Shown: one piece after another, positions 7,130 to 26,172 of the stretch
How positions within the stretch are numbered: the first letter of the stretch is position 1
How the letters are laid out: each line of letters starts with the position of its first letter
From: a virus
Lineage: Duplodnaviria; Heunggongvirae; Uroviricota; Caudoviricetes
Reading direction: 5' to 3' (one strand)
DNA length: 64,000 nt
Virus record (IMG/VR): IMGVR_UViG_3300015214_000028
Location: 1-64,000 of that record
Translations under genes and position numbers: made by a program
The notes under the pieces: model-generated
Told to the model about the DNA's origin: nothing
What the model saw: the letters and a program-made list of their open reading frames with translations, nothing else
Databases searched by the model: none

Positions 7130-7222
7130 GAGTGCTCTGAGCCCCGGGTTACCTTCCAATATTTTCTTAAAGTTGTACGCGGGGCCACCAATTACTCAGC
7201 GTCGCTGAGCCCCGGGTTACTC
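7130..7222. repeat. two direct ~65-bp repeats, each containing CTGAGCCCCGGGTTAC and AATTTTCTTAAAGTTGTACGCGGGG
   Basis: Read directly at 7130-7160 and 7200-7260. The core is the same 17-mer that recurs at 12187-14181. Confidence 0.8.
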
Positions 7223-7286
7223 TGTAAATTTTCTTAAAGTTGTACGCGGGGGAGGGCGGTGCGGCGGTGCCGATAGAGCGAGTCTA

Positions 7287-7322
7287 TCAACCGCCCATGC
7301 CCGATAGGGTGAGCCTATCGGG
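7287..7322. repeat. perfect 15-bp-stem inverted repeat (CCCATGCCCGATAGG gtgagc CCTATCGGGCATGGG) just downstream of the minus-strand two-gene operon
   Basis: Read directly. Preceded by a second palindrome GATAGAGCGAGTCTATC. Confidence 0.8.
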
Positions 7323-7337
7323 CATGGGTCTTGCCTG

Positions 7338-7634
7338 CTACACCTGGCGCGCAGGCGCGAAGTTCGCGAGGTTCAGCACGTCCAATCGATCATGTTCGGG
7401 CCGGGCAAGTGCATCGACCAAACGAGCGAGGAATTCCGTCGCGCTGATGGTAACGTGCCCGCCAGACACAGGAAAATCTACTTGCACGCTAACGCGCTCG
7501 ATCGCGCCTGCGCGCTCTACTGCGCGATTCAATTGCCTGACAAACGAGCGCGCAGCGATGAAGGTCATACCCTGCCCGAACGGGCGCGGCTGGCCTACGG
7601 GCTTTCCGGCCGCGAAGATGGTAATCTGTGTCAT
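7338..7634 (-). CDS. hypothetical protein (98 aa) in a ~60% GC patch
   Basis: Track ORF; follows the upstream ORF with a 5-nt gap. Confidence 0.45.
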   Translation of the reverse strand: MTQITIFAAGKPVGQPRPFGQGMTFIAARSFVRQLNRAVERAGAIERVSVQVDFPVSGGHVTISATEFLARLVDALARPEHDRLDVLNLANFAPARQV

Positions 7635-7639
7635 GCTGG

Positions 7640-7918
7640 TTACTCCATCGAATAATCGGCACAGTAGCGCAGCGCGCTAATGACCCGTTCCACAATCTTG
7701 GCCTCCCTGACTGCCTTTACCGCACCCGCATACTCGCCTGCGCTAGCATCCGTGGACATGCTCAGCAGGGTTTCTTCATGAAAGCGCACGTCGGACTCAG
7801 CCTTTGCTTGGGTAGAGTACAGAAGGTCTTCTACGCGCTGGCGCGCGGCGTTCAGTTCCTCATAAGCGACTTCACCCAGACCGAACATATGAGCTACGAA
7901 TGTGACAGTTGCCTTTTG
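7640..7918 (-). CDS. hypothetical protein (~93 aa; start ATG at 7918 with RBS GGAGGTAGG)
   Basis: The reverse complement of 7921-7935 gives GGTGGAGGTAGGAAA before the ATG. The track's longer 170-aa version runs back into AT-rich non-coding DNA. Confidence 0.45.
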   Translation of the reverse strand, partial: QKATVTFVAHMFGLGEVAYEELNAARQRVEDLLYSTQAKAESDVRFHEETLLSMSTDASAGEYAGAVKAVREAKIVERVISALRYCADYSME

Positions 7919-8357: not shown

Positions 8358-8741
8358 ATGCTAAAGAATCTTGACCTTGAAACCTTCTACCGTGCTGTAT
8401 CGCACTATTGCGAAGTTTTGCAGATTGATGAAAGTATGGTAGAATTCGAGTTTAGCAATCTTCGGCGCAATGCTAAATTATGGGGCGCTTGCATCAATGA
8501 CATTGATTGTGTTACAATCGAGATTGATAAAAGTTTGTCGCGCAAAAACACGCTAAAAACTCTAGCGCATGAGCTAGTGCATGCAAAACAGTTTTTAGAA
8601 GGTGAGCTAGACTGTATCGGGGATTATTGGATTTGGCACGGTGAAATTGTGTTAGAATCCTATGAGAATGAACCGCACGAAATAGAAGCTAACAGTCTCG
8701 AAAACGTGCTATACTCTAGTTTTATGGAAGCGAACCGATGA
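8358..8741 (+). CDS. HExxH zinc-metallopeptidase-like protein (ImmA/SprT-like; paralogue of 26173..26571)
   Basis: LAHELVHAKQF motif; ATG at 8358 in the track-ORF frame. Confidence 0.5.
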   Translation: MLKNLDLETFYRAVSHYCEVLQIDESMVEFEFSNLRRNAKLWGACINDIDCVTIEIDKSLSRKNTLKTLAHELVHAKQFLEGELDCIGDYWIWHGEIVLESYENEPHEIEANSLENVLYSSFMEANR

Positions 8742-9217
8742 AAATTGCAATTTTCGATCTGGACGAAACCGTTATTAATTCGTCGCATCGCACGCCGAAT
8801 AATCCCGATGGCACCCTTAACCTTGATGCTTACATTGCAAGGCATACACCGGAAAACGTGAGGAAAGACAAGGTTTTGCCGCTTGCCGAAACTATGCGCA
8901 GACTGTATAATATGGGCTGGCAGATTTTTGTTCTGACTGCTAGGGATATGAAACCTTGCGACTATGAATACCTCGCAAGGCATAATCTACCTTATCATCG
9001 CATTTTCTCGCGCGATCAAGCAAAGCCTGAACATTATAGGCTTTCCGATGGCGAATATAAAAAGCGCTGGATTCAAAAGCTGCTAAATCTTCGCCAATAC
9101 CGGAGCGCTTATGTTATAATGTTTGACGATAGCAGCAAGGTTAAATCTGCGCTGCGTCGATTCTTTCCGGTACTTTGCGCGCATAAGGTAAATGCGAAAA
9201 TCGGAACGGTTAAATAG
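8738..9217 (+). CDS. HAD-superfamily phosphatase (5'-deoxynucleotidase or PNK-phosphatase-like; resembles T5 dmp)
   Basis: N-terminal FDLDETV (DxDxT motif); 159 aa. Confidence 0.6.
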   Translation: MKIAIFDLDETVINSSHRTPNNPDGTLNLDAYIARHTPENVRKDKVLPLAETMRRLYNMGWQIFVLTARDMKPCDYEYLARHNLPYHRIFSRDQAKPEHYRLSDGEYKKRWIQKLLNLRQYRSAYVIMFDDSSKVKSALRRFFPVLCAHKVNAKIGTVK

Positions 9218-9283: not shown

Positions 9284-10849
9284 ATGATCGAAGCTAAAAT
9301 TGCACTGCGCATTCGCGGCGCTTTCCGGTTGCGCAAACCCGAAAGCATTGATTCTGCTATTGCCGACGTTGCCGAGGAAATTGGCGCGGATGTTAACGCG
9401 GTTCGGGAAGTTTACAATACCGAACGTGCACGGTTGGACGCGGCACGGATCGAGCGGATTCGGAAGGCGGAAAGCAAACCCGTTTCGGGCGGCGCGTTGC
9501 GCCCGGATTATTCTGCGGAAGATTACCCTGGTCCAATCATCGTCACCGCCGCGCAAAATAACACGGAAGTGGCAGAAGCTTTCTGGGATAACCTTGTCGG
9601 GTATGCGTCCAGCATTGGGGCTAAAATCATTGTCGCACCGATTCTGTATAATAAATCGGCATGGAATCAGCCCGATGACATGACTGGACAAGATATTTAC
9701 TTTGACCCCAAGGTCAAACCCTATATGCGCGATGATCGGTTTACCGTTCACGGTGTAGCGGTATTGGCTAACGCTCATGTTTTGCCGACGTCCAAGAATC
9801 CGTTGTCGGGTTTTGAATCGGCCACGGGTGCTGGACAGTCTATCGTCATCCCGGCCAGTAAAATCTCTCTTAAAACGATGCCACGCCTTAAGGGTGAACC
9901 GCTGAAAATTGTTCAATCTACGGGCACGGTTACGGTATGCAACTATGTCCAGCGCAAGGCCGGAACGGTATCCGAGTTGGAGCACAATTACGGGTTTACC
10001 GTGATTGAATCCGGCGGAAAAGTTCGATCGGTAGAATGTATGAATCCTGATGCCGGCGGGTTTTTTGATTTTGACGGGGAGCATGTAAACGAACAAGGCA
10101 TTGAGTACCCTGATAACCCGGCTGCGCTGGTTTTTGGAGATATTCACGCCGAAAAGCTGCCGCTGGAACGGCTTAATGCAATCTCGGCACTAGCGCGAAA
10201 GGTCAATCCGTGCAATGTCATTTTCCACGATATTCTAGACTTTTCGAGTCGGAACCATCACAATCGGGAGTCTAGTCTCTTCCGCTTTGTGGCGGATTCT
10301 ACGGGCCAGTCAGTGGAAAGCGATATTGAAAAGGTCGCTAACGTGCTAGACTGTTTCCCAAGCTATGCTCCTATTGTGGTTGACTCCAACCATGACAGAG
10401 CGCTTGAACGTTGGCTGGATGAGGCAGATTATCGCGAGGACTCACAAAACGCGATTTTCTTTTTGGAATTGCAGCTTGCACGATACCGTGCGGCAAACTG
10501 TGGACAAGAGCCTATTAACCTGCTAAAATACGCTTTGACCAAGCGTTTCGGCAGGGATTTTAATGCTACTTTCCTGAAGCCTGATGAAAGCTGCAAGGTA
10601 GAAGGTATTGAATGCGGCAATCATGGCGACCGTGGCCCTAACGGCGCTAGGGGAAGTTTGCAAGCATTCCGGGCAATTGGCGAATCTATGGTGATCGGAC
10701 ACTCCCATAGTCCGGGCATTGCCGGCAAAGTGTATCAGGTCGGGGTTTCGGGCAGCCTTGAAATGGGGTACAATGTTGGACCGTCGTCTTGGGCGCATGC
10801 TCACTGTATCATTTTCGCCAATGGACAACGGCAAATGATTTTCGAGTAA
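9284..10849 (+). CDS. large protein with a C-terminal calcineurin-like (Mre11-type) metallophosphoesterase domain; resembles T5 pre-early A1
   Basis: Motifs VFGDIHAE, HDILD, DSNHD, ECGNHGDRG, VIGHSHSP; 521 aa. Confidence 0.55.
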   Translation: MIEAKIALRIRGAFRLRKPESIDSAIADVAEEIGADVNAVREVYNTERARLDAARIERIRKAESKPVSGGALRPDYSAEDYPGPIIVTAAQNNTEVAEAFWDNLVGYASSIGAKIIVAPILYNKSAWNQPDDMTGQDIYFDPKVKPYMRDDRFTVHGVAVLANAHVLPTSKNPLSGFESATGAGQSIVIPASKISLKTMPRLKGEPLKIVQSTGTVTVCNYVQRKAGTVSELEHNYGFTVIESGGKVRSVECMNPDAGGFFDFDGEHVNEQGIEYPDNPAALVFGDIHAEKLPLERLNAISALARKVNPCNVIFHDILDFSSRNHHNRESSLFRFVADSTGQSVESDIEKVANVLDCFPSYAPIVVDSNHDRALERWLDEADYREDSQNAIFFLELQLARYRAANCGQEPINLLKYALTKRFGRDFNATFLKPDESCKVEGIECGNHGDRGPNGARGSLQAFRAIGESMVIGHSHSPGIAGKVYQVGVSGSLEMGYNVGPSSWAHAHCIIFANGQRQMIFE

Positions 10850-10963
10850 AAGTGGAACGGGGTGATTGACTCATCCCAGTCACTAGGTTATACTTCTTTC
10901 ATCGGTTCAGCGAATAGCGCGACGTTGAACCGATACCCTAAACCGCGCTAAAAGGGCTTTATC

Positions 10964-11308
10964 ATGAGCAAAGAAAAAGTGGCAGCGTATTCAATCGAGC
11001 AAACTTCGGAACTGGTCGAGGCTTACAAAGCCGACCCGACTCAAGAGACTGTTGCGATTTTTGCGGAACGGTTCGGAAAATCTGCCCGGTCGGTTATCGC
11101 GAAGCTTACTCGGGAAGGCGTGTATATCAAAAAGACTTACACCAGCAAAACGGGTGAACCTGTTATCAAAAAGGATGACATTGCCGACAAGATCGGTGCG
11201 CTTGTCGGGCTGGCGGATTCCGAAGCTGATTCGCTTGCGAAAGCTAATAAATCCGCGCTGAAGAAAATTTATGCACGGCTTACCGGATCGGGCGCGGATT
11301 CCGAATAA
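10964..11308 (+). CDS. small HTH-motif protein (A2-like); member of a paralogous family
   Basis: Motif ARSVIAKLTREGVYIKK is shared with 15894..16238, 37469..37828 and the three repeats in 40736..41472. Confidence 0.5.
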   Translation: MSKEKVAAYSIEQTSELVEAYKADPTQETVAIFAERFGKSARSVIAKLTREGVYIKKTYTSKTGEPVIKKDDIADKIGALVGLADSEADSLAKANKSALKKIYARLTGSGADSE

Positions 11309-11364
11309 CCTGTAGCATACCGGGGTGCATCCAGCACCCCGGTTAATCAAAAGGTAACGCTAAA

Positions 11365-11673
11365 ATGTCTCGAAAATACCAAAGCTTTAGATATCGAACA
11401 GCTATGTGCAGCATTGCTCAGGCTAATGGTGCGGTAGCTTGTCGCAAGGGTTTGACCGTAGCAATCGTTCCATGCCTTGAAGGCGCTTTCAATCCGAAGT
11501 TCTATAAGGTAGCAGTTGCTCACTGTAGTGACTCGGATGAATTTGACTATAGTCGCGGCGTGATTATTGCAGAAAATCGGCTTTGTTGCGACAACTTTAT
11601 CACGTTGCAAAACCCTTTTCCCGGTTCACCGCCACAACGCGCAGCGGAGTATTTTGCCTCGATGCTAGTCTAG
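11365..11673 (+). CDS. hypothetical protein (102 aa)
   Basis: Track ORF with RBS AAAGG; followed by a terminator. Confidence 0.4.
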   Translation: MSRKYQSFRYRTAMCSIAQANGAVACRKGLTVAIVPCLEGAFNPKFYKVAVAHCSDSDEFDYSRGVIIAENRLCCDNFITLQNPFPGSPPQRAAEYFASMLV

Positions 11674-11684
11674 GTTCCTAGCGT

Positions 11685-11716
11685 AAGCCCCAATTCTAAT
11701 TGGGGCTTTTCTTTTG
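11685..11716 (+). terminator. rho-independent terminator
   Basis: AAGCCCCAA ttctaa TTGGGGCTT followed by TTCTTTTG. Confidence 0.7.
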
Positions 11717-11751
11717 CCCGGTACTGTAAATGCTTCGCATTCGCCAGATGA

Positions 11752-11983
11752 AAATGATTCTCATTTGCTCGCGCCGATTTTACACCTGGTTGGCCAGCAC
11801 GTCAAGCCCGGGTACTCTAAACGAGAATGATTCTCATTCAGGCGCCGATTTTACACTACACTAGAACACTTGTCAAGCCGTGTTACAATTAACACGGGGT
11901 GTAGCATATGGGGCAAACTGGTACGCTTTTTGCTTTCGTTAAACGCGAACGATTCTCATTCTCAAACGCGAACGATTCTCATT
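11752..11983. repeat. four operator-like palindromes (A)AATGATTCTCATT(T/C), two followed by GCGCCGATTTTACAC
   Basis: Copies at about 11752-11766, 11825-11839, 11948-11960 and 11971-11983. Confidence 0.75.
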
Positions 11984-12020
11984 CTCATTTCTTTTTGCCA
12001 AAATACCCGAAGGGTATTTT

Positions 12021-12140
12021 GCGCCCGCGAGAGTGAGAAATCAACGCCAAATTTTCCGTGTCGCCGCGCCCGCGCGAGTGAGAAATCAATGACAAAATTC
12101 CGCGCCCGCGCGAGTGCGAGATCAACGTGAAATTTTACAT
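12021..12140. repeat. three tandem ~38-bp direct repeats (GCGCCCGCG(C)GAGTG(A/C)GA(A/G)ATCAA(C/T)G..AAATTTT), iteron-like
   Basis: Read directly. The track ORFs 11870..12130 and 12127..12318 are most likely non-coding repeat DNA. Confidence 0.75.
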
Positions 12141-12184
12141 GCTAGAGTGCAAAGTCAAGTCGAGTTTTCCCCCGCTAAAGCAAC

Positions 12185-12610
12185 ATAACCCGGGGTGCAG
12201 CGATCATAGCAATCATAGCAATCCTAGCAATCGCGGCAACCACAGCAACCACAGCAAGCCTCACACTAAAGCAGCCCTAGCAACTTCCCGTAGCCCTCAC
12301 AGTAGCCCAAGCCGCTAAAGACTTTACGCCCCGGGCTACTCTATGAGCCCTCTAAGCCCGCTAAAACCTCTGAGCCCCGGGTTAAAAAATAGCCCGGGGT
12401 GTAGCGATTGATTCAATGCCCCAAATCTAAACAGTAACCCGGGGCTCAGCGATTTTAGTAAGCTAAAAAATATCCCAGACTAAAGAAGTAGCCCGGGGCT
12501 CAACGATTTTAGCAAGCTAAATGCACTCAAAGAACTAAAAAGTAACCCGGGGTTCAGCAATTGAACCGGCTTCAGCAATTGAACCGATCTTTGAGCCCCG
12601 GGTTACTTTG
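12185..12610. repeat. cluster of at least eight copies, in both orientations, of a 17-25-bp element GTAACCCGGGG(C/T)(T/G)(C/T)AGC(G/A)ATT, plus tandem 9-mers (TAGCAATC / CAACCACAG) at 12196-12262
   Basis: Copies near 12187, 12337, 12369, 12390, 12434, 12488, 12542 and 12591. Confidence 0.85.
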
Positions 12611-17560: not shown

Positions 17561-17640
17561 TTGGCTAGGTATTCTAGCCATTTGTTTTATTTTGATTCAT
17601 TTCGTGGTTCCTATTTTGTTTTATTTTGGGGTATTTTAAT

Positions 17641-18516
17641 ATGAAAAAACTAATTATTGCAGCAGGTGTTGTGGCTTTTCTAGCAGGGTGTGGTGAGCGG
17701 GTAGAAGTCCCTCCTGCCCACATTGGTAAGGTAATGACTAAGAATGGCTACAAAGAACAGGTCATTCCAACTTCCAAATTTCGTCTTGAAGCGTGCATCA
17801 TGTATTGTGACAAGCTAGTTCTACTAGACGCTTCGGATCAGCCAGTGACTGAGCAGATGGAACTGTTCATGCCTAAAGACAAGCTCAATATGGTGTTTGA
17901 GCTTCGGCTTACTCTGGTGGTGAATCCCCAACGTCTTGAAGAGATCTTCGCCCGTATTCCCCCAGAAGCGGCTAATGAAGTCATTGACCGAATCTCAATT
18001 CAGCGAGTTTATCGTACCTACGCCCAGCAAATTATTCGAGCAGAAGCGCGTGAGTTTCTTAGCCAGTTTAGTATTGCAGAAATTGCGTCAAGTCGTGAAG
18101 CCATCAATGCCCAACTTAGCGAGCGATTGGTGGAGAGTATCAATACTAAGACCCCCTTTCAAGTACGCTACGTTGGTCTTGCGGATCTTAAATACCCAAA
18201 GATCATCGTTGAGGCTCAAGAGAATGCAGCTCAACGTCGCGAGCAAATTCAACAGGAAGAAGCTCAGCTAGAAATTAGCAAAGTTCAACTTGAGCGTACT
18301 CTCCAAGAGCAGCGACTACAGCGCGCTATTGATGTAGAGAAGGCTGCTGCAGAAGCGGAAGTTAACCGAATTCTTGCTAAAAGCGTAACCCCAGAGTATA
18401 TCAAATATCGAGAGCTTGCTTTGTTGGAAGCAATGACTAAAAGCGAGAATAAGATCTTTGTTCCTTCTAGTATGCTTGATTCTATCGCCGGACAAGTTCA
18501 ACTAGGACGCCAATAA
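17641..18516 (+). CDS. lipoprotein with an SPFH/band-7-like domain and a C-terminal coiled coil (candidate superinfection-exclusion or membrane protein)
   Basis: MKKLIIAAGVVAFLAGC lipobox; QQEEAQLEISKVQLERTLQEQRLQRAIDVEKAAAEAE coiled coil. Confidence 0.5.
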   Translation: MKKLIIAAGVVAFLAGCGERVEVPPAHIGKVMTKNGYKEQVIPTSKFRLEACIMYCDKLVLLDASDQPVTEQMELFMPKDKLNMVFELRLTLVVNPQRLEEIFARIPPEAANEVIDRISIQRVYRTYAQQIIRAEAREFLSQFSIAEIASSREAINAQLSERLVESINTKTPFQVRYVGLADLKYPKIIVEAQENAAQRREQIQQEEAQLEISKVQLERTLQEQRLQRAIDVEKAAAEAEVNRILAKSVTPEYIKYRELALLEAMTKSENKIFVPSSMLDSIAGQVQLGRQ

Positions 18517-18872
18517 TGTACGATTATATTCTAGATGTGTTGCTTTCTTTTAGCAGCTACCTTGCCCTAGCTATCGTTATTTGGTTAGGGCTGCCTCCTA
18601 TTCTTACCAGAGTAATGGATAAAGGAGGGGGGCTTAATGAAAAAAGCACTTCTCGTAGGATTGCGTTTGTAGTAGCGGTTGTAGGTTTTGTTCTTTCTGT
18701 TATGTCGCCAACCAACACCCCTAAAAATACTCCACACGATCGAAATACTTTTCGTAGTGTTCCTGCGCAATCTACCGGAGCTAAAGTGCAAGATCTAACT
18801 AAACAGCCTAAGAAAACTGATGAAGAACGCAAGGCTGATTTTGATGCCTTAGTTGATTGGAAAAGCAAATAA
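18516..18872 (+). CDS. membrane protein (two predicted TM helices)
   Basis: Track ORF with hydrophobic segments. Confidence 0.45.
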   Translation: MYDYILDVLLSFSSYLALAIVIWLGLPPILTRVMDKGGGLNEKSTSRRIAFVVAVVGFVLSVMSPTNTPKNTPHDRNTFRSVPAQSTGAKVQDLTKQPKKTDEERKADFDALVDWKSK

Positions 18873-18880
18873 TCCTTAGC

Positions 18881-18909
18881 TTGATTAAGCAAGCCGCGCT
18901 TGCTATAAT
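18881..18909 (+). promoter_or_regulatory. sigma70 promoter TTGATT-N17-TATAAT; the spacer contains the palindrome GCAAGCCGCGCTTGC
   Basis: Read directly. Confidence 0.6.
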
Positions 18910-18933
18910 ATATCTTTACGGTGAGAGACACAA

Positions 18934-19347
18934 ATGGAAAAATACGATTTTGAAGGGGCCTTTTCTACAAAAAGCTCTATTATGACAAAAAATGAACTAC
19001 TAGAATTATCAGCAAAGCTGCTAGGCATTGATATCTTTCGTTCTAGCGAAACATATTTATTCTATGATAAATACGATAAATACGTTATCTGGAACCCTCT
19101 AAACAATAATAACCAAGCTATGCAGCTTATGGCTGACTATAGACCAAGTCTAATGGTAGGAATAAATAAGTACATAGACGTAGAAGTATTTTATAGGAAT
19201 AATGAGGGGTTTCTAGAGTTTAAGAACTACGAAGTTTGGTATCAGGACTACCCTTCTGTAGAGGCAGCTATTCGCTACGCAATTGTTCTAGGCGCAGCTG
19301 AGGCGTACAAGCTAAGAATGGAGTACAGTAATGCGAACACTCTATGA
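18934..19347 (+). CDS. hypothetical protein (137 aa)
   Basis: Track ORF. Confidence 0.45.
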   Translation: MEKYDFEGAFSTKSSIMTKNELLELSAKLLGIDIFRSSETYLFYDKYDKYVIWNPLNNNNQAMQLMADYRPSLMVGINKYIDVEVFYRNNEGFLEFKNYEVWYQDYPSVEAAIRYAIVLGAAEAYKLRMEYSNANTL

Positions 19348-19367
19348 TAGCAAGGAGAAAAAACGAA

Positions 19368-19664
19368 ATGACTAACATCACTATCAACGGCGTCGAGTAC
19401 GCCCCCGTCAATCGCGTCACCGGCACGCGCGCAGTCGTTGTTGTTGACCGAGGCTGGATCTTTGCCGGCGACGTGACCCGCGAGAATGGCCGTATCCGAC
19501 TCAGCCGTGCGGTACACGTGTTCCGCTGGGAGTCCATCGGGTTCGCAAAGATGATTGAGACTGAACAAGCCGATCTGCGGCCAATCGCCGACGTTGACAT
19601 GCCGGCCGATGCGGAGATTTTCTGCGTGCCTGTTCACGAGGGATGGGGTCTTAAAAATGACTAA
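19368..19664 (+). CDS. hypothetical protein; first gene of the high-GC island
   Basis: RBS AAGGAGA precedes the ATG at 19368 (MTNITINGVEY...). GC above 60%. Confidence 0.45.
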   Translation: MTNITINGVEYAPVNRVTGTRAVVVVDRGWIFAGDVTRENGRIRLSRAVHVFRWESIGFAKMIETEQADLRPIADVDMPADAEIFCVPVHEGWGLKND

Positions 19665-19956
19665 CCCAATCATGGGGCCGATTGGTTACGGCTACAGCAA
19701 CGGCTACGGCTACGGCTACAGCTACAGCTACAGCTACGGCTACGGCTACGGTGACGGTGACGGTGACGGCAACGGCTACGGATACGGATACGGCGACGGC
19801 AACGGCTACGGTGACGGCAACGGCTACGGCTACGGATACGGCGACGGCAACGGCTACGGCGACGGCTACGGCTACGGCAACGGCAACGGCAGCGGCTACG
19901 GCTACGGCGACGGCTACGGCACAATCAACTCCACGTCGCGGAGGCGGAGGACGTGA
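19657..19956 (+). CDS. Gly-Tyr/Gly-Asp/Gly-Asn dipeptide-repeat protein (~100 aa; (GY)n(GD)n(GN)n), encoded by a (GGCTAC)n hexanucleotide array
   Basis: ATG at 19657. Translation MTNPIMGPIGYGYSNGYGYGYSYSYSYGYGYGDGDGDGNGYGYGYGDGNG...GTINSTSRRRRT, stop at 19954-19956. Confidence 0.5.
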   Translation: MTNPIMGPIGYGYSNGYGYGYSYSYSYGYGYGDGDGDGNGYGYGYGDGNGYGDGNGYGYGYGDGNGYGDGYGYGNGNGSGYGYGDGYGTINSTSRRRRT

Positions 19957-20351
19957 TCCGCGACGAACTGCAGGCTCTTGCAGACGAGCTCGAATCGAAT
20001 CTGTATCACCGTGCCGCCGCTGTCCTGCGGCAAATTGCAGATGCGAAACCGGTTGCATGGCGCTGGATGTATAAGGGAAAGCCTGAGCCTTACGCTCTTG
20101 GAGGAAGCCTCTGTTTTGACGGTACCGGCCCCGATGCTGATATCGAGGCACGAGGAGCAGCAGCCGAACATCCTCGCACAGTACAGAGGCTCTACGCCCT
20201 ACCCCCTGCACTCCGCATGCCGGAGCCGATGACGAGAAGCGAAATCAGCGACTACGCACGAGTGATGGTGAAGGACAATAGGTCGGTAGATTGGCTGGTT
20301 ATGCAGATCGAGGCCGAAACCCTTCACCGAGTGAAGGAGATGAACGAATGA
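19953..20351 (+). CDS. hypothetical protein (132 aa; GTG start overlaps the upstream stop)
   Basis: Track ORF in the high-GC island. Confidence 0.4.
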   Translation: MIRDELQALADELESNLYHRAAAVLRQIADAKPVAWRWMYKGKPEPYALGGSLCFDGTGPDADIEARGAAAEHPRTVQRLYALPPALRMPEPMTRSEISDYARVMVKDNRSVDWLVMQIEAETLHRVKEMNE

Positions 20352-21202
20352 ACCGACCCCTTGTGATCTACCACGGCAACTGCGCGGACGGCTTTAGCGC
20401 AGCTTGGTGTTTCTGGCGCAAGTACGGCGCCGGCGCTGACTACGTTGCAGGCGTGTACCAGCAAGCTCCGCCTGACGTGGCCGGGCGCGACGTGTACCTG
20501 GTGGACTTCAGCTACAAGCGCTCCGTGGTGGAGCAGATGCTGGCGCAGGCGCGCAGCGTGTGCTTAATCGACCACCACAAGACCGCCATTGAAGACTTGC
20601 AGCCGCTGTTCATGCAGGATTCGTGGGCGGGGGAGCCGAAGCAACTGGCGCACTTCACCGACTTGAACCGGAGCGGTGCCACGCTGGCGTGGGACTACCT
20701 GTTCCCGGGCGAAGACCGGCCGCTCCTGCTGGGCCATGTGGAAGACCGCGACCTGTGGCGCTTCAAGCTGCAGGGCACGCGCGAGATTCAGGCGTTCATG
20801 TTCTCGCACGAGTACAGCTTCGAGCTGTGGGACAAGCTTATGAGCGCCGATCAGGTGGAACTGCTGAAGATGACCGCAGCCGGTGCCGCCATCGAGCGTA
20901 AACACCACAAGGACGTGGCCGAGCTGGTGGCTGTGTGCAAGCGACGTATGGTGATCGGCGCCCATGATGTGCCCGTCGCGAGTCTTCCGTACACGATGGT
21001 TAGCGATGCCGCGCACCTGATGGCGCAGGGCGAGCCATTCGCGGCGTGCTACTGGGACACCGCCGAAGGTCGCGTGTTCGGCCTGCGCTCCTCCGACGAA
21101 GGCGTGGACGTATCTGAAGTGGCAAAGCAGTACGGCGGTGGCGGCCACGCCAAAGCGGCCGGATTCATGGTGCCGCGTGGTCACGTTCTAGCGGTGGCGT
21201 AA
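20348..21202 (+). CDS. DHH/DHHA1-family phosphoesterase (NrnA-like nanoRNase / pAp- or cyclic-dinucleotide-phosphodiesterase-like)
   Basis: Motifs LVIYHGNCADGFSAA, LVDFS, CLIDHHKT (DHH), and C-terminal QYGGGGHAKAAGF (DHHA1 GGGH). ATG at 20348 shares its A with the upstream stop (ATGA). Confidence 0.65.
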   Translation: MNRPLVIYHGNCADGFSAAWCFWRKYGAGADYVAGVYQQAPPDVAGRDVYLVDFSYKRSVVEQMLAQARSVCLIDHHKTAIEDLQPLFMQDSWAGEPKQLAHFTDLNRSGATLAWDYLFPGEDRPLLLGHVEDRDLWRFKLQGTREIQAFMFSHEYSFELWDKLMSADQVELLKMTAAGAAIERKHHKDVAELVAVCKRRMVIGAHDVPVASLPYTMVSDAAHLMAQGEPFAACYWDTAEGRVFGLRSSDEGVDVSEVAKQYGGGGHAKAAGFMVPRGHVLAVA

Positions 21203-21230
21203 TGCTGCGCCGAGTCAAGGAGGTGAACAA

Positions 21231-21458
21231 ATGAAAGGAACTGAAATGAATGTGAGCGTCGAACAGTTGAGCGACGGAGATCGTGTCCGCTTGCACCCGA
21301 ACTCGGACAACCCGATTCACAAGCAGCCGGTGTATGCAACGTACTCGCAGGGATACTTCTTCTGCGATGGAAGTGGCCCTGCGGATGGTCCCGACTACTT
21401 CTTCCGCGACGTGCTGACATTCAATGACCGCATTGAGTTGATTGTCACCAACAGGTAA
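21231..21458 (+). CDS. hypothetical protein (75 aa)
   Basis: Track ORF; high GC. Confidence 0.4.
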   Translation: MKGTEMNVSVEQLSDGDRVRLHPNSDNPIHKQPVYATYSQGYFFCDGSGPADGPDYFFRDVLTFNDRIELIVTNR

Positions 21459-21494
21459 GTCAATTCCTAAGCGCTACGAGAAGGAGAGGAACAA

Positions 21495-21731
21495 GTGAGC
21501 AAGATAAAAAACGGCGGTCCGGCTTACCCAGCGGTTGATATTGTTCCCGGAGTAAATTACAATTCTTCAACCGAAATCTATTACAAGGGCATGACCCTGC
21601 GCGATTGGTTTGCAGGACAGGCACTAGTCGGGCTATCTATTCGACGTGAAGGCGAGTGCGATGCAGACGACGCCGAAAACGCTTACAGACTCGCAGACGC
21701 CATGCTCAAGGCAAGGGAGGTGAACAAGTGA
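21495..21731 (+). CDS. hypothetical protein (78 aa; GTG start with a GGAG RBS)
   Basis: Track ORF; last gene of the high-GC island. Confidence 0.4.
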   Translation: MSKIKNGGPAYPAVDIVPGVNYNSSTEIYYKGMTLRDWFAGQALVGLSIRREGECDADDAENAYRLADAMLKAREVNK

Positions 21732-21794
21732 GCATCGAACTAATCGAAGCAATCGGGGTATGGATAGTACTGCCGGTAACGTGTAGGAGTTAAA

Positions 21795-22121
21795 ATGATG
21801 CATAAAAATGCCTGGCTTCGTGTTATTGACGAAGCTCTAGTAACTTCTGGGCTAGAGTTTGCTAGCCCTAATGATTCATATGAAGAGGCTAAACAAAAAT
21901 TAAATGATCTGATTTGTTGGAATATTTCAGTGGCTGTTGATCCGGTACTTGCGGAGCAACTATCAGAAGAAGAAATACTAGAAGCTATTAGCCCTTTCTA
22001 CAGCACTAGATTATTAGCTATTATGGGACTGGAAGGGGGCCTGCCTGAGTTTAGAGAGATCGAAAGGGCGGTACTACACAAACTGTATAATACCTTTTCC
22101 AAAAAGAAATTTGGGGCTTGA
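21795..22121 (+). CDS. hypothetical protein (108 aa)
   Basis: Track ORF; composition returns to AT-rich. Confidence 0.45.
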   Translation: MMHKNAWLRVIDEALVTSGLEFASPNDSYEEAKQKLNDLICWNISVAVDPVLAEQLSEEEILEAISPFYSTRLLAIMGLEGGLPEFREIERAVLHKLYNTFSKKKFGA

Positions 22122-22146
22122 TTTTCTTTTTTGGCCCGTGTATAAT
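22118..22146 (+). promoter_or_regulatory. sigma70 promoter TTGATT-N17-TATAAT
   Basis: Read directly. Confidence 0.6.
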
Positions 22147-22184
22147 ATTATTTCTGAGTCGGAAATCAAATCAAAAAGGAAAAC

Positions 22185-22472
22185 ATGGAAATTAACGAAG
22201 TATTGAAAGAACGGGGCTCCAGGTATGGGCCATTTTCGGGACATGCAGCTATTGCGCAATCTCTAAAAGATGTTTTTGAAGGTGAAGGTGCACCAACTAG
22301 TTTTGAAACCAATTGGTACTTTCTAGAGGACTTTCATAAAGAAGCACTAGAAATGATTGCTCATAAGATTGGCCGCATTCTAAATGGGGATCCTAATTAT
22401 GATGATAGCTGGCGAGATATTGCTGGATACGCTCAGCTAGTTGTTGACATTCTAAACGGTAAAGACACATGA
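22185..22472 (+). CDS. hypothetical protein (95 aa)
   Basis: Track ORF. Confidence 0.45.
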   Translation: MEINEVLKERGSRYGPFSGHAAIAQSLKDVFEGEGAPTSFETNWYFLEDFHKEALEMIAHKIGRILNGDPNYDDSWRDIAGYAQLVVDILNGKDT

Positions 22473-22654
22473 TTTATAGCAAGCAGTTCCTTATTGATGC
22501 CTACCTTTGGCGCTTCAAAGGTCTTGATACTAAAATTCTAGAAGAGAATGCTAATACCTACTATGACAAAGTAGGCAAAGATAAGTTTCGAACTGCTGCT
22601 AGCCTTGATGCTACTTACCTAAAGGAATACAAAAATGCGTGTAAAGGTACTTAA
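22469..22654 (+). CDS. hypothetical protein (61 aa)
   Basis: Track ORF. Confidence 0.35.
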   Translation: MIYSKQFLIDAYLWRFKGLDTKILEENANTYYDKVGKDKFRTAASLDATYLKEYKNACKGT

Positions 22655-24671: not shown

Positions 24672-25183
24672 AAACATTCCTTGTAGCAGACACGCACTTT
24701 GGTCACCAAGGTGTTTGTAGGTTTCTTAGAGAGGACGGCTCCAAGCTTCGTCCATGGGATAACTATGCAGATATGGATCGGGAGCTTGTTGCTAGATGGA
24801 ACGCTAAAGTAGGGCCTAAAGATAAGGTATATCACCTGGGCGATGTTCTTATAAACCGTAGGGCTTTTGGTGTTTTGAATGAGCTTAATGGTGATAAGGT
24901 ACTAATACGTGGTAACCATGACATCTTTAAAGACGCCGAGTATACTCCATTCTTTAGGTCTATACGTGGGTCTCATGTGTTAAATAACATGTTGTTAACT
25001 CATATACCTGTTCACCCAGACAGTATGGGCAGGTTTACAGTTAATCTTCATGGGCACTTGCACTATCGTAGTGTTATGCTAGGAGACACGCCCGACCCTA
25101 GGTACCTATGTCTATCAGTGGAGCATACTGATTATGCTCCAATAGATTTTAACGAAGTACTTTCTAGAGTAGCTCAGCGGTAG
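24668..25183 (+). CDS. calcineurin-like metallophosphoesterase
   Basis: Motifs ADTHFGHQG, GDVLINR, IRGNHD, GHLHYR. The 3' end overlaps tRNA-Asn. Confidence 0.6.
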   Translation: MKTFLVADTHFGHQGVCRFLREDGSKLRPWDNYADMDRELVARWNAKVGPKDKVYHLGDVLINRRAFGVLNELNGDKVLIRGNHDIFKDAEYTPFFRSIRGSHVLNNMLLTHIPVHPDSMGRFTVNLHGHLHYRSVMLGDTPDPRYLCLSVEHTDYAPIDFNEVLSRVAQR

Positions 25184-25237
25184 AGCAGTTGGCTGTTACC
25201 CAATTGGTCCTAGGTTCGATACCTAGCTCTAGAGCCA
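25163..25237 (+). tRNA. tRNA-Asn(GTT)
   Basis: Acceptor TCTAGAG/CTCTAGA; D arm AGCTCAGCGGTAGAGCA; anticodon loop CTGTTAC; T loop TTCGATA; encoded CCA. Confidence 0.75.
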
Positions 25238-25312
25238 GGGGGATTAGTGATAATGGGAGCACAGGGGTTTTGCATACCTTTAGTGGGAGTTCAATTCTCC
25301 CATCCTCCACCA
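25238..25312 (+). tRNA. tRNA-Ala(TGC)
   Basis: G3:U70 alanine identity pair; anticodon loop TTTGCAT; T arm GGGAG-TTCAATT-CTCCC; encoded CCA. Confidence 0.65.
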
Positions 25313-25320
25313 AGTTTTAA

Positions 25321-25395
25321 GCACGATTCGTCTATCGGTTAGGACTCAAGGTTTTCATCCTTGCAAGAGGGGTTCGACTCCCCTATCGTGTGCCA
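25321..25395 (+). tRNA. tRNA-Glu(TTC)
   Basis: Anticodon stem CAAGG/CCTTG with loop TTTTCAT; T arm AGGGG-TTCGACT-CCCCT; encoded CCA. Confidence 0.7.
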
Positions 25396-25459
25396 ATTTT
25401 AGTTTTAGGATAGATACAGCAAATTTTACTTATATGGAAGTAACCAAAACTATCCTGTC

Positions 25460-25488
25460 TTGATTTTGTTTGATTAGTGCTGTATAAT
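25460..25488 (+). promoter_or_regulatory. sigma70 promoter TTGATT-N17-TATAAT ahead of the tRNA-Gly/Ile pair
   Basis: Read directly. Confidence 0.6.
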
Positions 25489-25500
25489 GTTTATATCGGA

Positions 25501-25569
25501 TGGGGAATCGCCAAGATGGTTAAGGCATTGGGTTTTGATCCCGACAGTCGAATCCTTCTTCCCTTGCCA
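25501..25569 (+). ncRNA. tRNA-like leader or degenerate tRNA (acceptor, D arm and a TTG anticodon arm recognisable, no T arm)
   Basis: GCC-aagatggttaa-GGC D arm and TTGGG-ttttgat-CCCGA anticodon-like arm ending in TTGCCA, but the 3' part has no foldable T stem. Confidence 0.3.
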
Positions 25570-25578
25570 AAATATTTT

Positions 25579-25654
25579 GCGGATATAGCTCAATTGGTAG
25601 AGCTTCTGCCTTCCAAGCAGACTGTTGTCGGTTCGAGTCCGACTATCCGCTCCA
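25579..25654 (+). tRNA. tRNA-Gly(TCC)
   Basis: GCGGATA/TATCCGC acceptor; loop CTTCCAA; T arm GTCGG-TTCGAGT-CCGAC; encoded CCA. Confidence 0.8.
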
Positions 25655-25661
25655 ACTTTAC

Positions 25662-25736
25662 TCCCGATTAGCTCAGAGGTAGAGCAGTGTTTTGATAAAG
25701 CACTGGTCGATGGTTCGAGTCCATCATCGGGTACCA
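25662..25736 (+). tRNA. tRNA-Ile(GAT)
   Basis: D arm GCTCAGAGGTAGAGC; loop TTGATAA; T arm GATGG-TTCGAGT-CCATC; encoded CCA. The 1:72 pair is T:T. Confidence 0.7.
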
Positions 25737-26075
25737 AATTTAGAGTATACTACCCCAACGGATGGAAAGGAACTACACCTCCCCTTCTTAGTAGGGAAAA
25801 CTCTAAATCTTCTGGGGTCTTGGCCAGACTTTAGAATAATCGACTGTGCGATGAGAGGCTTTAATCTCTCGGGGTACGGCAGTACAGGAACCGTAACCTG
25901 CTATAATAATGATTCCTTTCACTTTTAGGAGCTTATTACTAAGTCTCCTTTTTCAAGATAACTAGACGGACTGTGCTGCCCATAGCGGCACGTGTTAACA
26001 AGTTCGGTGGCGTCTGGCAACCTGCAAAAACTGTATATGCCAGTATACAGGAATGTATCTAGTTGTCTTGAAAAA

Positions 26076-26167
26076 GGAGAGATCCCATAATCGGTATTGG
26101 AGCGGATTGCTAATCCGTCGGCCTGCTAAAAACAGACTTGTGGGTTCGAGTCCCACTCTCTCCACCA
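26076..26167 (+). tRNA. tRNA-Ser(GCT), type II with a long variable arm
   Basis: GGAGAGA/TCTCTCC acceptor; loop TTGCTAA; T arm GTGGG-TTCGAGT-CCCAC; encoded CCA. Confidence 0.7.
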
Positions 26168-26172
26168 TAATT

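Follow-up and report, generated by a model that had tools for sequence, protein, structure and literature searches.

The window analysed here is a 64,000-nucleotide (nt) stretch of tailed-phage DNA (positions 1 to 64,000 of IMG/VR record IMGVR_UViG_3300015214_000028), and it contains a GC-rich island of six plus-strand genes, one of which encodes a stand-alone DHH-DHHA1 phosphoesterase, plus a possible seventh gene of 21 codons (Table 1). A preliminary description of this DNA had reported six tightly overlapping genes in a high-GC island, with the DHH gene at the coordinates that are retained here. All six genes are indeed present, but overlaps (of 8, 4 and 4 nt) are confined to the first four, whereas g5 and g6 follow after gaps of 28 and 36 nt, and a micro-open reading frame (micro-ORF) possibly stands beside them. 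The start codon of g1 is probably the ATG given in Table 1 rather than position 19344, which would yield a protein of 106 amino acids (aa), as it is favoured by the AAGGAG site. At the other end of the island, the putative micro-ORF, which would be coupled to g6, stops a single nt short of the following low-GC gene and marks the island's right edge.

The island differs sharply in composition from the DNA around it. Its richest 1859-bp segment (19370-21228) has a GC content of 0.616 as compared to a background of 0.405 (standard deviation 0.032 for segments of the same size; z = 6.5), and the GC content of the whole window, 41.4%, becomes 40.7% when the island is excluded. When calculated over 200 bp, GC is 0.33-0.39 at 18900-19300, climbs to 0.54-0.67 in 19300-21300, declines to 0.47-0.52 over 21300-21800 and then returns to ~0.39; the left edge is sharp (~19360-19380), and the right edge is gradual. 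GC at third codon positions (GC3) is 0.53-0.87 in the island genes versus a background of ~0.30, and the genes flanking the island have GC and GC3 values of 0.37-0.41 and 0.28-0.37, respectively. Contigs that are 99.3-100% identical to the window cross both island edges between them, and they originate from five samples and three assembly sources (ENA ERZ27247376 and ERZ27247346, SRR6484323, JGI 3300028603 and SRR8449813). Because the contigs of all five samples agree across both edges, the island is no assembly chimera, and an artefact of chimeric metagenome assembly is effectively refuted. The earlier claim of a high-GC island within a low-GC genome is in this respect confirmed, with edges that are supported by independent assemblies.

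Table 1. Features of the GC-rich island and of the DHH gene (window coordinates).
Feature	Position	Strand	GC/GC3	Remarks
Sigma-70-like promoter, TTGATT-17-TATAAT with TG	18881..18909	+		consensus match only
g1, 98 aa	19368..19664	+	0.56/0.65	first island gene; AAGGAG Shine-Dalgarno site at 19352
g2, 99 aa, Gly-Tyr-Asp/Asn repeat protein with basic C-terminal tail (…STSRRRRT)	19657..19956	+	0.64/0.87	translationally coupled to g1 and g3
Hexanucleotide tandem repeat TACGGC, 39 copies	19687..19920	.		encodes the Gly-Tyr repeats of g2
g3, 132 aa, GTG start	19953..20351	+	0.57/0.58	chimeric; two modules match different L041 genes
Junction copy 1, GAAGGAGATGAACGAATGA	20333..20351	+		DHH start
DHH gene, stand-alone DHH-DHHA1 phosphoesterase, 284 aa	20348..21202	+	0.64/0.81	profiles, model, invariant residues
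Motif I, H9-G-N-C12-A-D14-G	20372-20389	+		Cys12 codon 20381-20383
Motif II, D53	20504-20506	+		
DHH motif, D75-H76-H77	20570-20578	+		
D133-R-D135	20744-20752	+		motif IV region
GGGH, residues 264-267	21137-21148	+		
Junction copy 2	21216..21234	+		directly after DHH stop; g5 start
g5, 75 aa, orphan	21231..21458	+	0.53/0.68	no family match
Junction copy 3	21480..21498	+		g6 start
g6, 78 aa, phrog_2201	21495..21731	+	0.52/0.53	PHROG profile, 1.3e-17
Junction copy 4	21713..21731	+		micro-ORF start
Possible hydrophobic micro-ORF, 21 codons, VSIELIEAIGVWIVLPVTCRS	21728..21793	+		read from sequence

The DHH gene product matches the phrog_4771 'DHH phosphoesterase' profile with an E value of 2.4e-102, its residues 2-281 pairing with positions 16-289 of the 363 in the profile, and it passes the cut-off of the Pfam DHHA1 domain (PF02272; 30.3 bits, cut-off 25.9), which matches 51 of 55 family members. 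Its score against the Pfam DHH domain (PF01368) is 16.2 bits and lies below the cut-off of 28.1; 38 of the 55 relatives match this profile at E <= 0.01. In an alignment of 55 sequences reaching down to 41% identity, residues C12, D14, G15, D53, D75, H76, H77, D133, D135, G264 and G266 are invariant, while H9, R247, S248 and H267 are nearly invariant. The preliminary description had listed DHH, DxD and GGGH motifs, and the first and last of these are present; however, motif I reads H9-x-x-C12-x-D14-G, with a cysteine in place of the first aspartate, so that Asp-x-Asp is absent from this site, and the DxD of the protein is D133-R-D135. The sequence H-x-N-C-x-D-G occurs in at least 203 of 270 family proteins, and nearly all of the listed remainder contain H-x-x-C-x-D-G. 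Since the second aspartate and the upstream histidine are kept, the cysteine form of motif I is, as read from the alignment, a variant of the motif and not a loss. In the family II pyrophosphatase and in NrnA, the upstream histidine, the first motif I aspartate and the motif II aspartate hold one of two metals, and by analogy a His/Cys/Asp metal site is predicted for the viral and prophage clade that contains Cys12, in distinction to the characterised NrnA, NrnB, RecJ and pyrophosphatase enzymes.

An AlphaFold2 model of the protein (predicted local distance difference test 94.6, predicted template modelling score 0.86) contains two alpha/beta lobes that are joined by a helix formed by residues 169-197, and just 17 residues follow the GGGH histidine, leaving no C-terminal extension. 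Foldseek searches with this model returned NrnA, Rv2837c/CdnP, TM1595, GdpP, PggH and DhhP at ~1e-11 with template modelling (TM) scores of 0.4-0.6. Much closer matches in the BFVD database of viral models include DHH phosphohydrolases of the giant viruses Marseillevirus, Klosneuvirus, Lausannevirus, Pithovirus and Hokovirus (TM 0.79-0.86 overall) and proteins of the jumbo phages PhiEaH1, PaBG and ME3 (TM 0.80-0.86). Judged by its profile matches, predicted structure and fold matches, the protein is an intact, two-lobed and stand-alone DHH-DHHA1 metal-dependent phosphoesterase with a helical linker, and the complete DHH/DHHA1 enzyme that had been proposed earlier is in this sense upheld.

The protein is a member of phrog_4771, a known but uncharacterised phage family within the DHH superfamily. 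It shares its length class and motifs with the phrog_4771 proteins of Polaromonas phage Tiera (gp027), phiCbK-like Caulobacter phages, Vibrio anguillarum H20-like phages and the jumbo phages PaBG, PhiEaH1 and ME3, and it is 39-54% identical to the Tiera, phiCbK-like and Vibrio phage proteins. Among cellular enzymes, it resembles the NrnB proteins (COG2404) of B. subtilis, H. pylori and B. thuringiensis, which are likewise stand-alone DHH-DHHA1 enzymes with an alpha-helical linker and the DHH and GGGH signatures; the NrnB clades B and C, which prefer short RNA, also resemble it in having no long C-terminal extension. Homologs that are 82-91% identical to the window protein are named 'oligoribonuclease NrnB/cAMP/cGMP phosphodiesterase (DHH superfamily)', COG2404, by JGI. 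The window protein differs from NrnB in motif I, where it has the cysteine and no first aspartate, and the sole viral protein annotated as NrnB in BFVD, from Bacillus phage AR9, is a weak match (TM 0.65, 16% identity). The characterised COG2404 NrnBs are 3'-5' exoribonucleases; short RNA is preferred by the ones that lack the long C-terminal extension, and cyclic di-AMP (c-di-AMP) was cleaved by none of them (PMC12709177).

The RecJ-type cores HAN (5yh1), RecJ2 (7ykv), RecJ-Cdc45/GAN (7bhi) and RecJ (1ir6, 2zxo) are among the closest folds (11-15% identity), and they share with the window protein a DHH-DHHA1 core joined by a long helix. These chains (385-648 residues) are, however, ~100-360 residues longer, whereas the window protein lacks an oligonucleotide-binding (OB) fold, an S1 domain, a zinc finger or any other accessory domain, and its CxDG differs from the DxDxDG of RecJ motif I. 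The preliminary description had named homology to a RecJ fragment as an observation that would count against its reading, and the protein is instead full-length and stand-alone, belongs to a complete family of ~280 aa and is under purifying selection. Apart from the NrnA-like size that had been noted, the protein is unlike NrnA in its details: the score against the NrnA equivalog (NCBIfam NF053633) is 19 bits versus a cut-off of 350 and comes from residues 249-276 alone, and its closest counterparts are a viral DHH clade and, with their helical linker, the RecJ2/HAN/RecJ cores. With the wider group of NrnA, CdnP (Rv2837c), TM1595, GdpP, PggH and DhhP it shares the superfamily and the two-metal DHH/GGGH architecture, and the family profile reaches 9r7o, 3dev, 9n0l and 5jju at 4e-8 to 5e-6; however, sequence similarity to this group is essentially confined to the GGGH region, and a different linker and lobe arrangement accounts for the low TM scores. 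By fold, the DHH protein resembles NrnB or a RecJ core, and it is a member of neither the NrnA nor the RecJ family. Phage enzymes that remove defence signals include Acb1, a 2H phosphodiesterase, Apyc1, which has a metallo-beta-lactamase fold, and the ring nuclease AcrIII-1; these families are absent from the Pfam, PHROG and structure matches of the DHH protein, which does not share their folds. No experimental study of this phage DHH clade came up in a literature search.

Relatives of the DHH protein are abundant, and those closest to it reside in phages of a very different composition. A word-indexed search yielded ~7000 relatives, the best 120 of which are 82-94% identical, and the protein falls among 11,556 clusters at 50% identity. 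The nearest relatives (87-94% identity in aa and 84-89% in nt) all lie on phage or prophage contigs of 60-69% GC and on metagenome-assembled genomes (MAGs) of Betaproteobacteria type. Carriers in this GC range include lambdoid contigs, namely L038 (60% GC), which encodes a cI-like repressor, ERF and NinB and whose DHH copy is 94% identical in aa and 88% in nt, and L008, L009 and L039 (64-67% GC), which have ERF/YqaJ, RecT/YqaJ or Sak/NinB/DnaB. They also include a Mu-like transposable phage with a Mu transposase (L004-L007, 69% GC), in which the DHH gene follows GemA, and phages of PolA type; the MAG contigs with close DHH copies are titled Proteobacteria, Rubrivivax, Sterolibacterium and Acidobacteriota. 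So far, the subclade of the window protein (82-94% identity) is known only from MAGs and from metagenomic phages of high GC that are temperate or Mu-like, and none of the 135 deposited phages that carry the phrog_4771 family is T5-like. DNA homology between the window and L004-L011, L014, L038 and L039 spans just 20334-20349 to 21185-21214, i.e. the open reading frame (ORF) and a few flanking bases, and none of these DHH-bearing loci encodes relatives of g1, g2, g3, g5 or g6. Clustering of the genes next to DHH in 40 loci found no universal partner and only sporadic YfdQ-like, HNH and C5-methyltransferase genes. As far as these alignments and gene neighbourhoods reach, the DHH cassette is a single gene that travels alone between unrelated phages.

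Comparison of the window DHH gene with its five closest relatives gives synonymous divergences (dS) of 0.52-0.64 and ratios of nonsynonymous to synonymous divergence (dN/dS) of 0.065-0.14. The low dN/dS values, which reflect purifying selection, argue that the gene is functional, while the dS values imply that the true donor is unsampled or that the transfer is not very recent. The recent acquisition from a high-GC donor that had been proposed is therefore recent only in relative terms (dS ~0.55); its foreign, GC-rich origin stands, and the single donor does not. The GC3 of the window gene (Table 1) compares with values of 0.85-0.91 in its four closest full-length copies, and the changes specific to the window lineage comprise 20 GC-to-AT, 2 AT-to-GC and 4 GC-to-GC substitutions. 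The ratio of GC-to-AT to GC-to-GC changes is raised as compared to the pooled relatives (Fisher's test, p = 0.018), and the GC-rich relatives likewise show a GC-to-AT excess, simply by opportunity. This modest signal is suggestive of the start of a drift of the DHH gene towards the composition of the phage that now carries it.

Homology breaks and the distribution of relatives indicate that the island as a whole is a mosaic of at least four separately exchangeable early-gene cassettes and not a single donor block. The cassettes are g1 with g2, the chimeric g3, the DHH gene, and g5 with g6 and the micro-ORF, and relatives of g1/g2, g3 and g6 occur in phages of 51-64% GC. The g1 protein belongs to an unnamed family of small and abundant phage proteins (2946 homologs, the best at 74-89% identity), no homolog of which has a Pfam domain, and members are encoded on phage contigs of 56-64% GC (L130-L132). 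A g1 homolog followed by a GYG/GNG-repeat gene with a basic tail is found in L132 (63.5% GC) and in L130/L131 (56% GC, PolA-encoding), and window positions 19374-19794 are 80% identical to L132 in DNA sequence. Because the same pair recurs in these contigs, g2 is a real conserved gene that is paired with g1. One gene caller had chosen a minus-strand ORF in its place, which we rejected, as GC3 is 0.49 there versus 0.87 in the g2 frame. The g2-like repeat genes are located at 8327-8581 in L130, 7381-7515 in L132 and 9358-9609 in L001. The family has a short N-terminal 'M..P(V/I)G' segment and lies directly 3' of a g1-family gene in three unrelated phage contigs. The length of the TACGGC array is polymorphic, as the g2 protein has 83 aa in L001, a near-identical phage, versus 99 aa in the window, and short-read assemblies break at this array.

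The g3 protein is itself composite, and it has just 4 homologs among 5.8 billion proteins. Its first 84 aa are 87% identical in aa and 84% in nt to a 90-aa protein of L041 (10007-10260), a phage contig of 53.5% GC with PolA, YuA_Gp49 and NinX, whereas its C-terminal module, 'ALRMPEPMT…EAE.L.RV.E.N', matches the end of another L041 gene (11500-11646); g3 matches also occur in L042. In L041, the gene at 10996-11649 begins with an N-terminus that matches the protein encoded at window positions 21795-22121 (58% identity in aa) and continues with a g3-type C-terminal module and the junction sequence described below. Because this L041 gene joins the same pieces differently, small modules have been shuffled in different order between phages. 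In the last cassette, g5 has no match in Pfam, PHROG or NCBIfam, and homologs of g6 occur in 67 phages, the majority of them phages of Pseudomonas, Burkholderia, Ralstonia and Rhizobium. Neither g3 nor g5 gave a tblastn match among 50,697 deposited phage records, and PADLOC and NCBIfam returned nothing useful for any island protein.

The cassette boundaries carry a repeated sequence. The junction motif RAAGGAGRTGAACRARTGA (18-19 nt) consists of a Shine-Dalgarno site, a spacer and a start codon that overlaps the preceding stop codon, and it is present in four copies in the 64-kb window, all of them within the island (Table 1), as compared to 0.02 copies expected by chance. Copies 1 and 2 form an imperfect direct repeat that brackets the DHH ORF; a longer 23-mer is limited to the two DHH flanks (20329-20351 and 21212-21234), and a direct reading of 20322-20351 against 21205-21234 shows agreement at 24 of 30 positions. 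Homology also links 21203-21234 to the coding 3' end of the L041 gene with the g3-like C-terminal module (L041 copy at 11618-11649). The junction sequence is absent upstream of DHH in the donor-type loci, where the sequence is unrelated. On the simplest reading of this arrangement, small genes with a common boundary sequence would already have formed an array, and insertion of the DHH ORF would have duplicated the boundary. The motif may be a hotspot for recombination during cassette exchange, or it may merely be a shared translation-initiation region.

In the scenario that these observations would fit, a low-GC T5-like phage would have acquired the cassettes of 19368-21793 by recombination from the gene pool of phages, both temperate and lytic, that infect GC-rich Proteobacteria, and homologous exchange at shared junctions would leave the pattern of four copies with two of them bracketing DHH. 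Tailed phages are known to be mosaics, and in lambdoid phages cassettes ('morons') are exchanged at conserved gene boundaries. The island is like the lambdoid type of mosaicism in its single-gene modules, in the sharp breaks of homology at ORF ends and in the short boundary sequence that is repeated at successive starts; it is unlike it in that the recipient, a lytic T5-like phage, lies ~20-25 GC points below the donor-type contigs. An island-free relative with an empty site was sought and none was found: IMG/VR contains no relative of the upstream flank gene, the DUF6378 flank gene is so common that it does not help, the contigs with exact protein matches to either flank gene all carry the island, and L041 offers only a partial 'DHH-less' junction.

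On balance, we lean towards an explanation that combines mosaic import of cassettes with a DHH product that is most likely a short-oligonucleotide exonuclease of the NrnB/RecJ-core type. Early in infection, such an enzyme would trim short single strands of nanoRNA or nanoDNA, a few residues long, down to mononucleotides; its predicted metal site would be formed by His9, Cys12, Asp14, Asp53, Asp75, His76/His77 and Asp133, and the lobe containing GGGH and Arg247 would hold the substrate. A linear-oligonucleotide substrate is favoured because of the JGI naming of close homologs as NrnB/COG2404, the biochemistry of the COG2404 NrnBs (PMC12709177) and the gene context in phage Tiera, where the DHH gene directly follows PolA and primase. 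Several points weigh against this explanation. The substrate is assigned from distant relatives, as the protein is 12-18% identical to any solved DHH protein, and the motif I cysteine is foreign to characterised NrnA, NrnB and RecJ enzymes and could signify a different chemistry or metal. A mobile, conserved and partnerless single early gene has the typical profile of a counter-defence gene, and in-vitro degradation of many cyclic nucleotides has been shown for at least one viral DHH enzyme (bioRxiv 10.64898/2026.07.21.739742). As for the import itself, the junction repeat could be the ordinary conservation of a translation-initiation region among the genes of one source, and no island-free relative that would show the order and number of the acquisitions was found.

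The strongest competitor, which we regard as possible although clearly less probable, is that the DHH protein is a counter-defence phosphodiesterase that destroys early in infection the signals of cyclic-oligonucleotide-based antiphage signalling systems (CBASS), the cyclic oligoadenylates cA3/cA4/cA6 of type III CRISPR, the cyclic mononucleotides (cNMP) of Pycsar or related signals, and that is passed between phages as a single anti-defence gene. Such a role had been proposed in the preliminary description, where Thoeris signals were a further candidate target. The movement of the gene alone between unrelated phages, its location at early or accessory sites, its lack of a partner and its strong purifying selection are consistent with this role, as are the structural matches to CdnP/Rv2837c and GdpP, which are true cyclic-dinucleotide phosphodiesterases. 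The idea is already in print for phage DHH enzymes: Iyer et al. proposed that those of jumbo phages counter SMODS and type III CRISPR signals (PMC7824862), and a recent preprint describes viral DHH enzymes as widespread and repeatedly transferred horizontally, with an ordered linker helix in viral and cellular groups such as its groups 4 and 5 (bioRxiv 10.64898/2026.07.21.739742); such a helix and horizontal transfer are also found for the window protein. In that study, the mimivirus enzyme R106 (Euk-DHH-1B) degraded 3'3'-cyclic GMP-AMP (cGAMP) and many other cyclic nucleotides in vitro, and the phage protein Ph_DHH_3B blocked cGAMP-STING signalling, although its catalytic mutant inhibited non-specifically (bioRxiv 10.64898/2026.07.21.739742). 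The closest viral models of the window protein are giant-virus DHH enzymes with an ordered linker helix as in groups 4 and 5, and R106 and Ph_DHH_3B are, like it, viral stand-alone DHH-DHHA1 proteins. However, their activities come from in-vitro or human-cell assays and not from tests against bacterial defence, the role would be extrapolated to the clade of the window protein, to which R106 and Ph_DHH_3B may or may not belong, and knockout of R106 had no phenotype in the natural host (bioRxiv 10.64898/2026.07.21.739742). The failure of the characterised COG2404 NrnBs to cleave c-di-AMP also speaks against it, as does the lack of a known defence or anti-defence gene adjoining DHH in the loci inspected; the protein has no PADLOC match either, but that library consists of defence and not anti-defence proteins. 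More tentative still is the proposal that the whole Cys-motif-I clade is a dedicated and broadly mobile counter-defence phosphodiesterase in which the His/Cys/Asp site tunes substrate or metal use. This clade comprises thousands of 50%-identity clusters and is present in T5-like, Mu-like, lambdoid and jumbo phages, while its fold recurs in giant eukaryotic viruses; if the proposal were true, the capture of the gene by a low-GC T5-like phage would reflect selection by signalling defence in a GC-rich host. We consider it unlikely that the protein is a minimal RecJ-like exonuclease for single-stranded DNA that aids phage recombination or replication through end resection or the removal of flaps or primers. 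Temperate phages do place the gene in an early operon with ERF/RecT/Sak, YqaJ exonuclease and NinB, its position in Tiera after PolA and primase would suit such a role, and some homologs in Brevundimonas and Serratia phages are annotated 'single-stranded-DNA-specific exonuclease', but no recombination partner is consistently adjacent and the window gene lies 20 kb from the replication genes, among orphan small ORFs. In addition, all 284 aa are taken up by the two catalytic lobes, with no OB fold or other DNA-binding domain of the kind that gives RecJ its processivity, and motif I departs from that of RecJ. Finally, it is highly improbable that the island is an assembly artefact or a decaying, functionless passenger: the metagenomic origin of the sequence and the frequent breaks of assemblies within the hexanucleotide repeat could be taken to favour it, but near-identical contigs cross both edges, and six intact and translationally linked ORFs, the low dN/dS of the DHH gene and the retention of all catalytic residues argue against a passenger.

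The phage that carries the island is, as judged from its gene content, a divergent tailed phage of T5 type. Its T5-like backbone genes encode the A1 'DNA transfer protein' (phrog_1745), an SbcC-like protein, PolA (a family A polymerase), a DnaB-like helicase, ribonucleotide reductase, a protease-capsid fusion, the large terminase (TerL) and a J-like tail protein, and 15 tRNA genes are located in a block at 25163-33256. The identity of TerL to its counterparts in Vibrio T5-like phages is 49%, and for A1 the figure is 36-37% relative to enterobacterial T5-like phages. A megablast search of the island and 24 kb of the window against the 50,697 phage records returned only tRNA matches, and the same phage is present at 99-100% identity in five metagenome samples. 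Further GC-rich patches stand out from a background of 0.40 in the window at 1-1500 (0.50-0.57), 7200-7800 (0.60) and 9300-12600 (0.46-0.57); GC3 is 0.66-0.76 in the ORFs at 16-291, 355-654, 1018-1230 and 7240-7680, which have no PHROG match, and the patch at 9300-12600 includes the A1 gene (9284-10849, GC 0.51). The existence of several such patches suggests repeated exchange with a GC-rich gene pool.

Within this genome, the island occupies a stretch of small early ORFs between the genes for an SPFH-family lipoprotein and a DUF6378 protein. The promoter-like site listed in Table 1 precedes the low-GC gene at 18934-19347, and, as read from the sequence, it likely starts a transcription unit that runs through the island, inside which no plus-strand terminator-like site was found; an Rfam scan of 18500-22500 detected no RNA family. 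Just upstream of the island, a small membrane protein gene (18516-18872) comes after the SPFH/Band-7 lipoprotein gene (17626-18516; phrog_200), whose product has a lipobox-like N-terminus; this pairing is unusual in a phage early region. Elsewhere in the window, a polynucleotide-kinase-like gene (phrog_415) and a gene for an 'RNA-binding protein' (phrog_850), at 8738-9217 and 31510-32880, in the tRNA block, could form a set for RNA or tRNA repair.

The island is a cleanly resolved case of a lytic T5-like phage that imports single genes from the temperate-phage pool of GC-rich bacteria, with breakpoints that lie at ORF ends and are marked by a repeated junction sequence. The exchange suggests that this 40% GC phage shares hosts with phages of 60-69% GC, and the imported genes point to a GC-rich proteobacterial host community. 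What is specific to the window is the T5-type carrier, the resolved mosaic with its repeated junction and the family-wide motif I cysteine; the general idea is already in the literature, and the finding adds a candidate and its context rather than a new concept. With its 11,556 clusters, the DHH clade is among the most widespread uncharacterised phage DHH clades, and settling whether its members are nanoRNase-type aids or anti-signalling enzymes would annotate thousands of phage genes at once.

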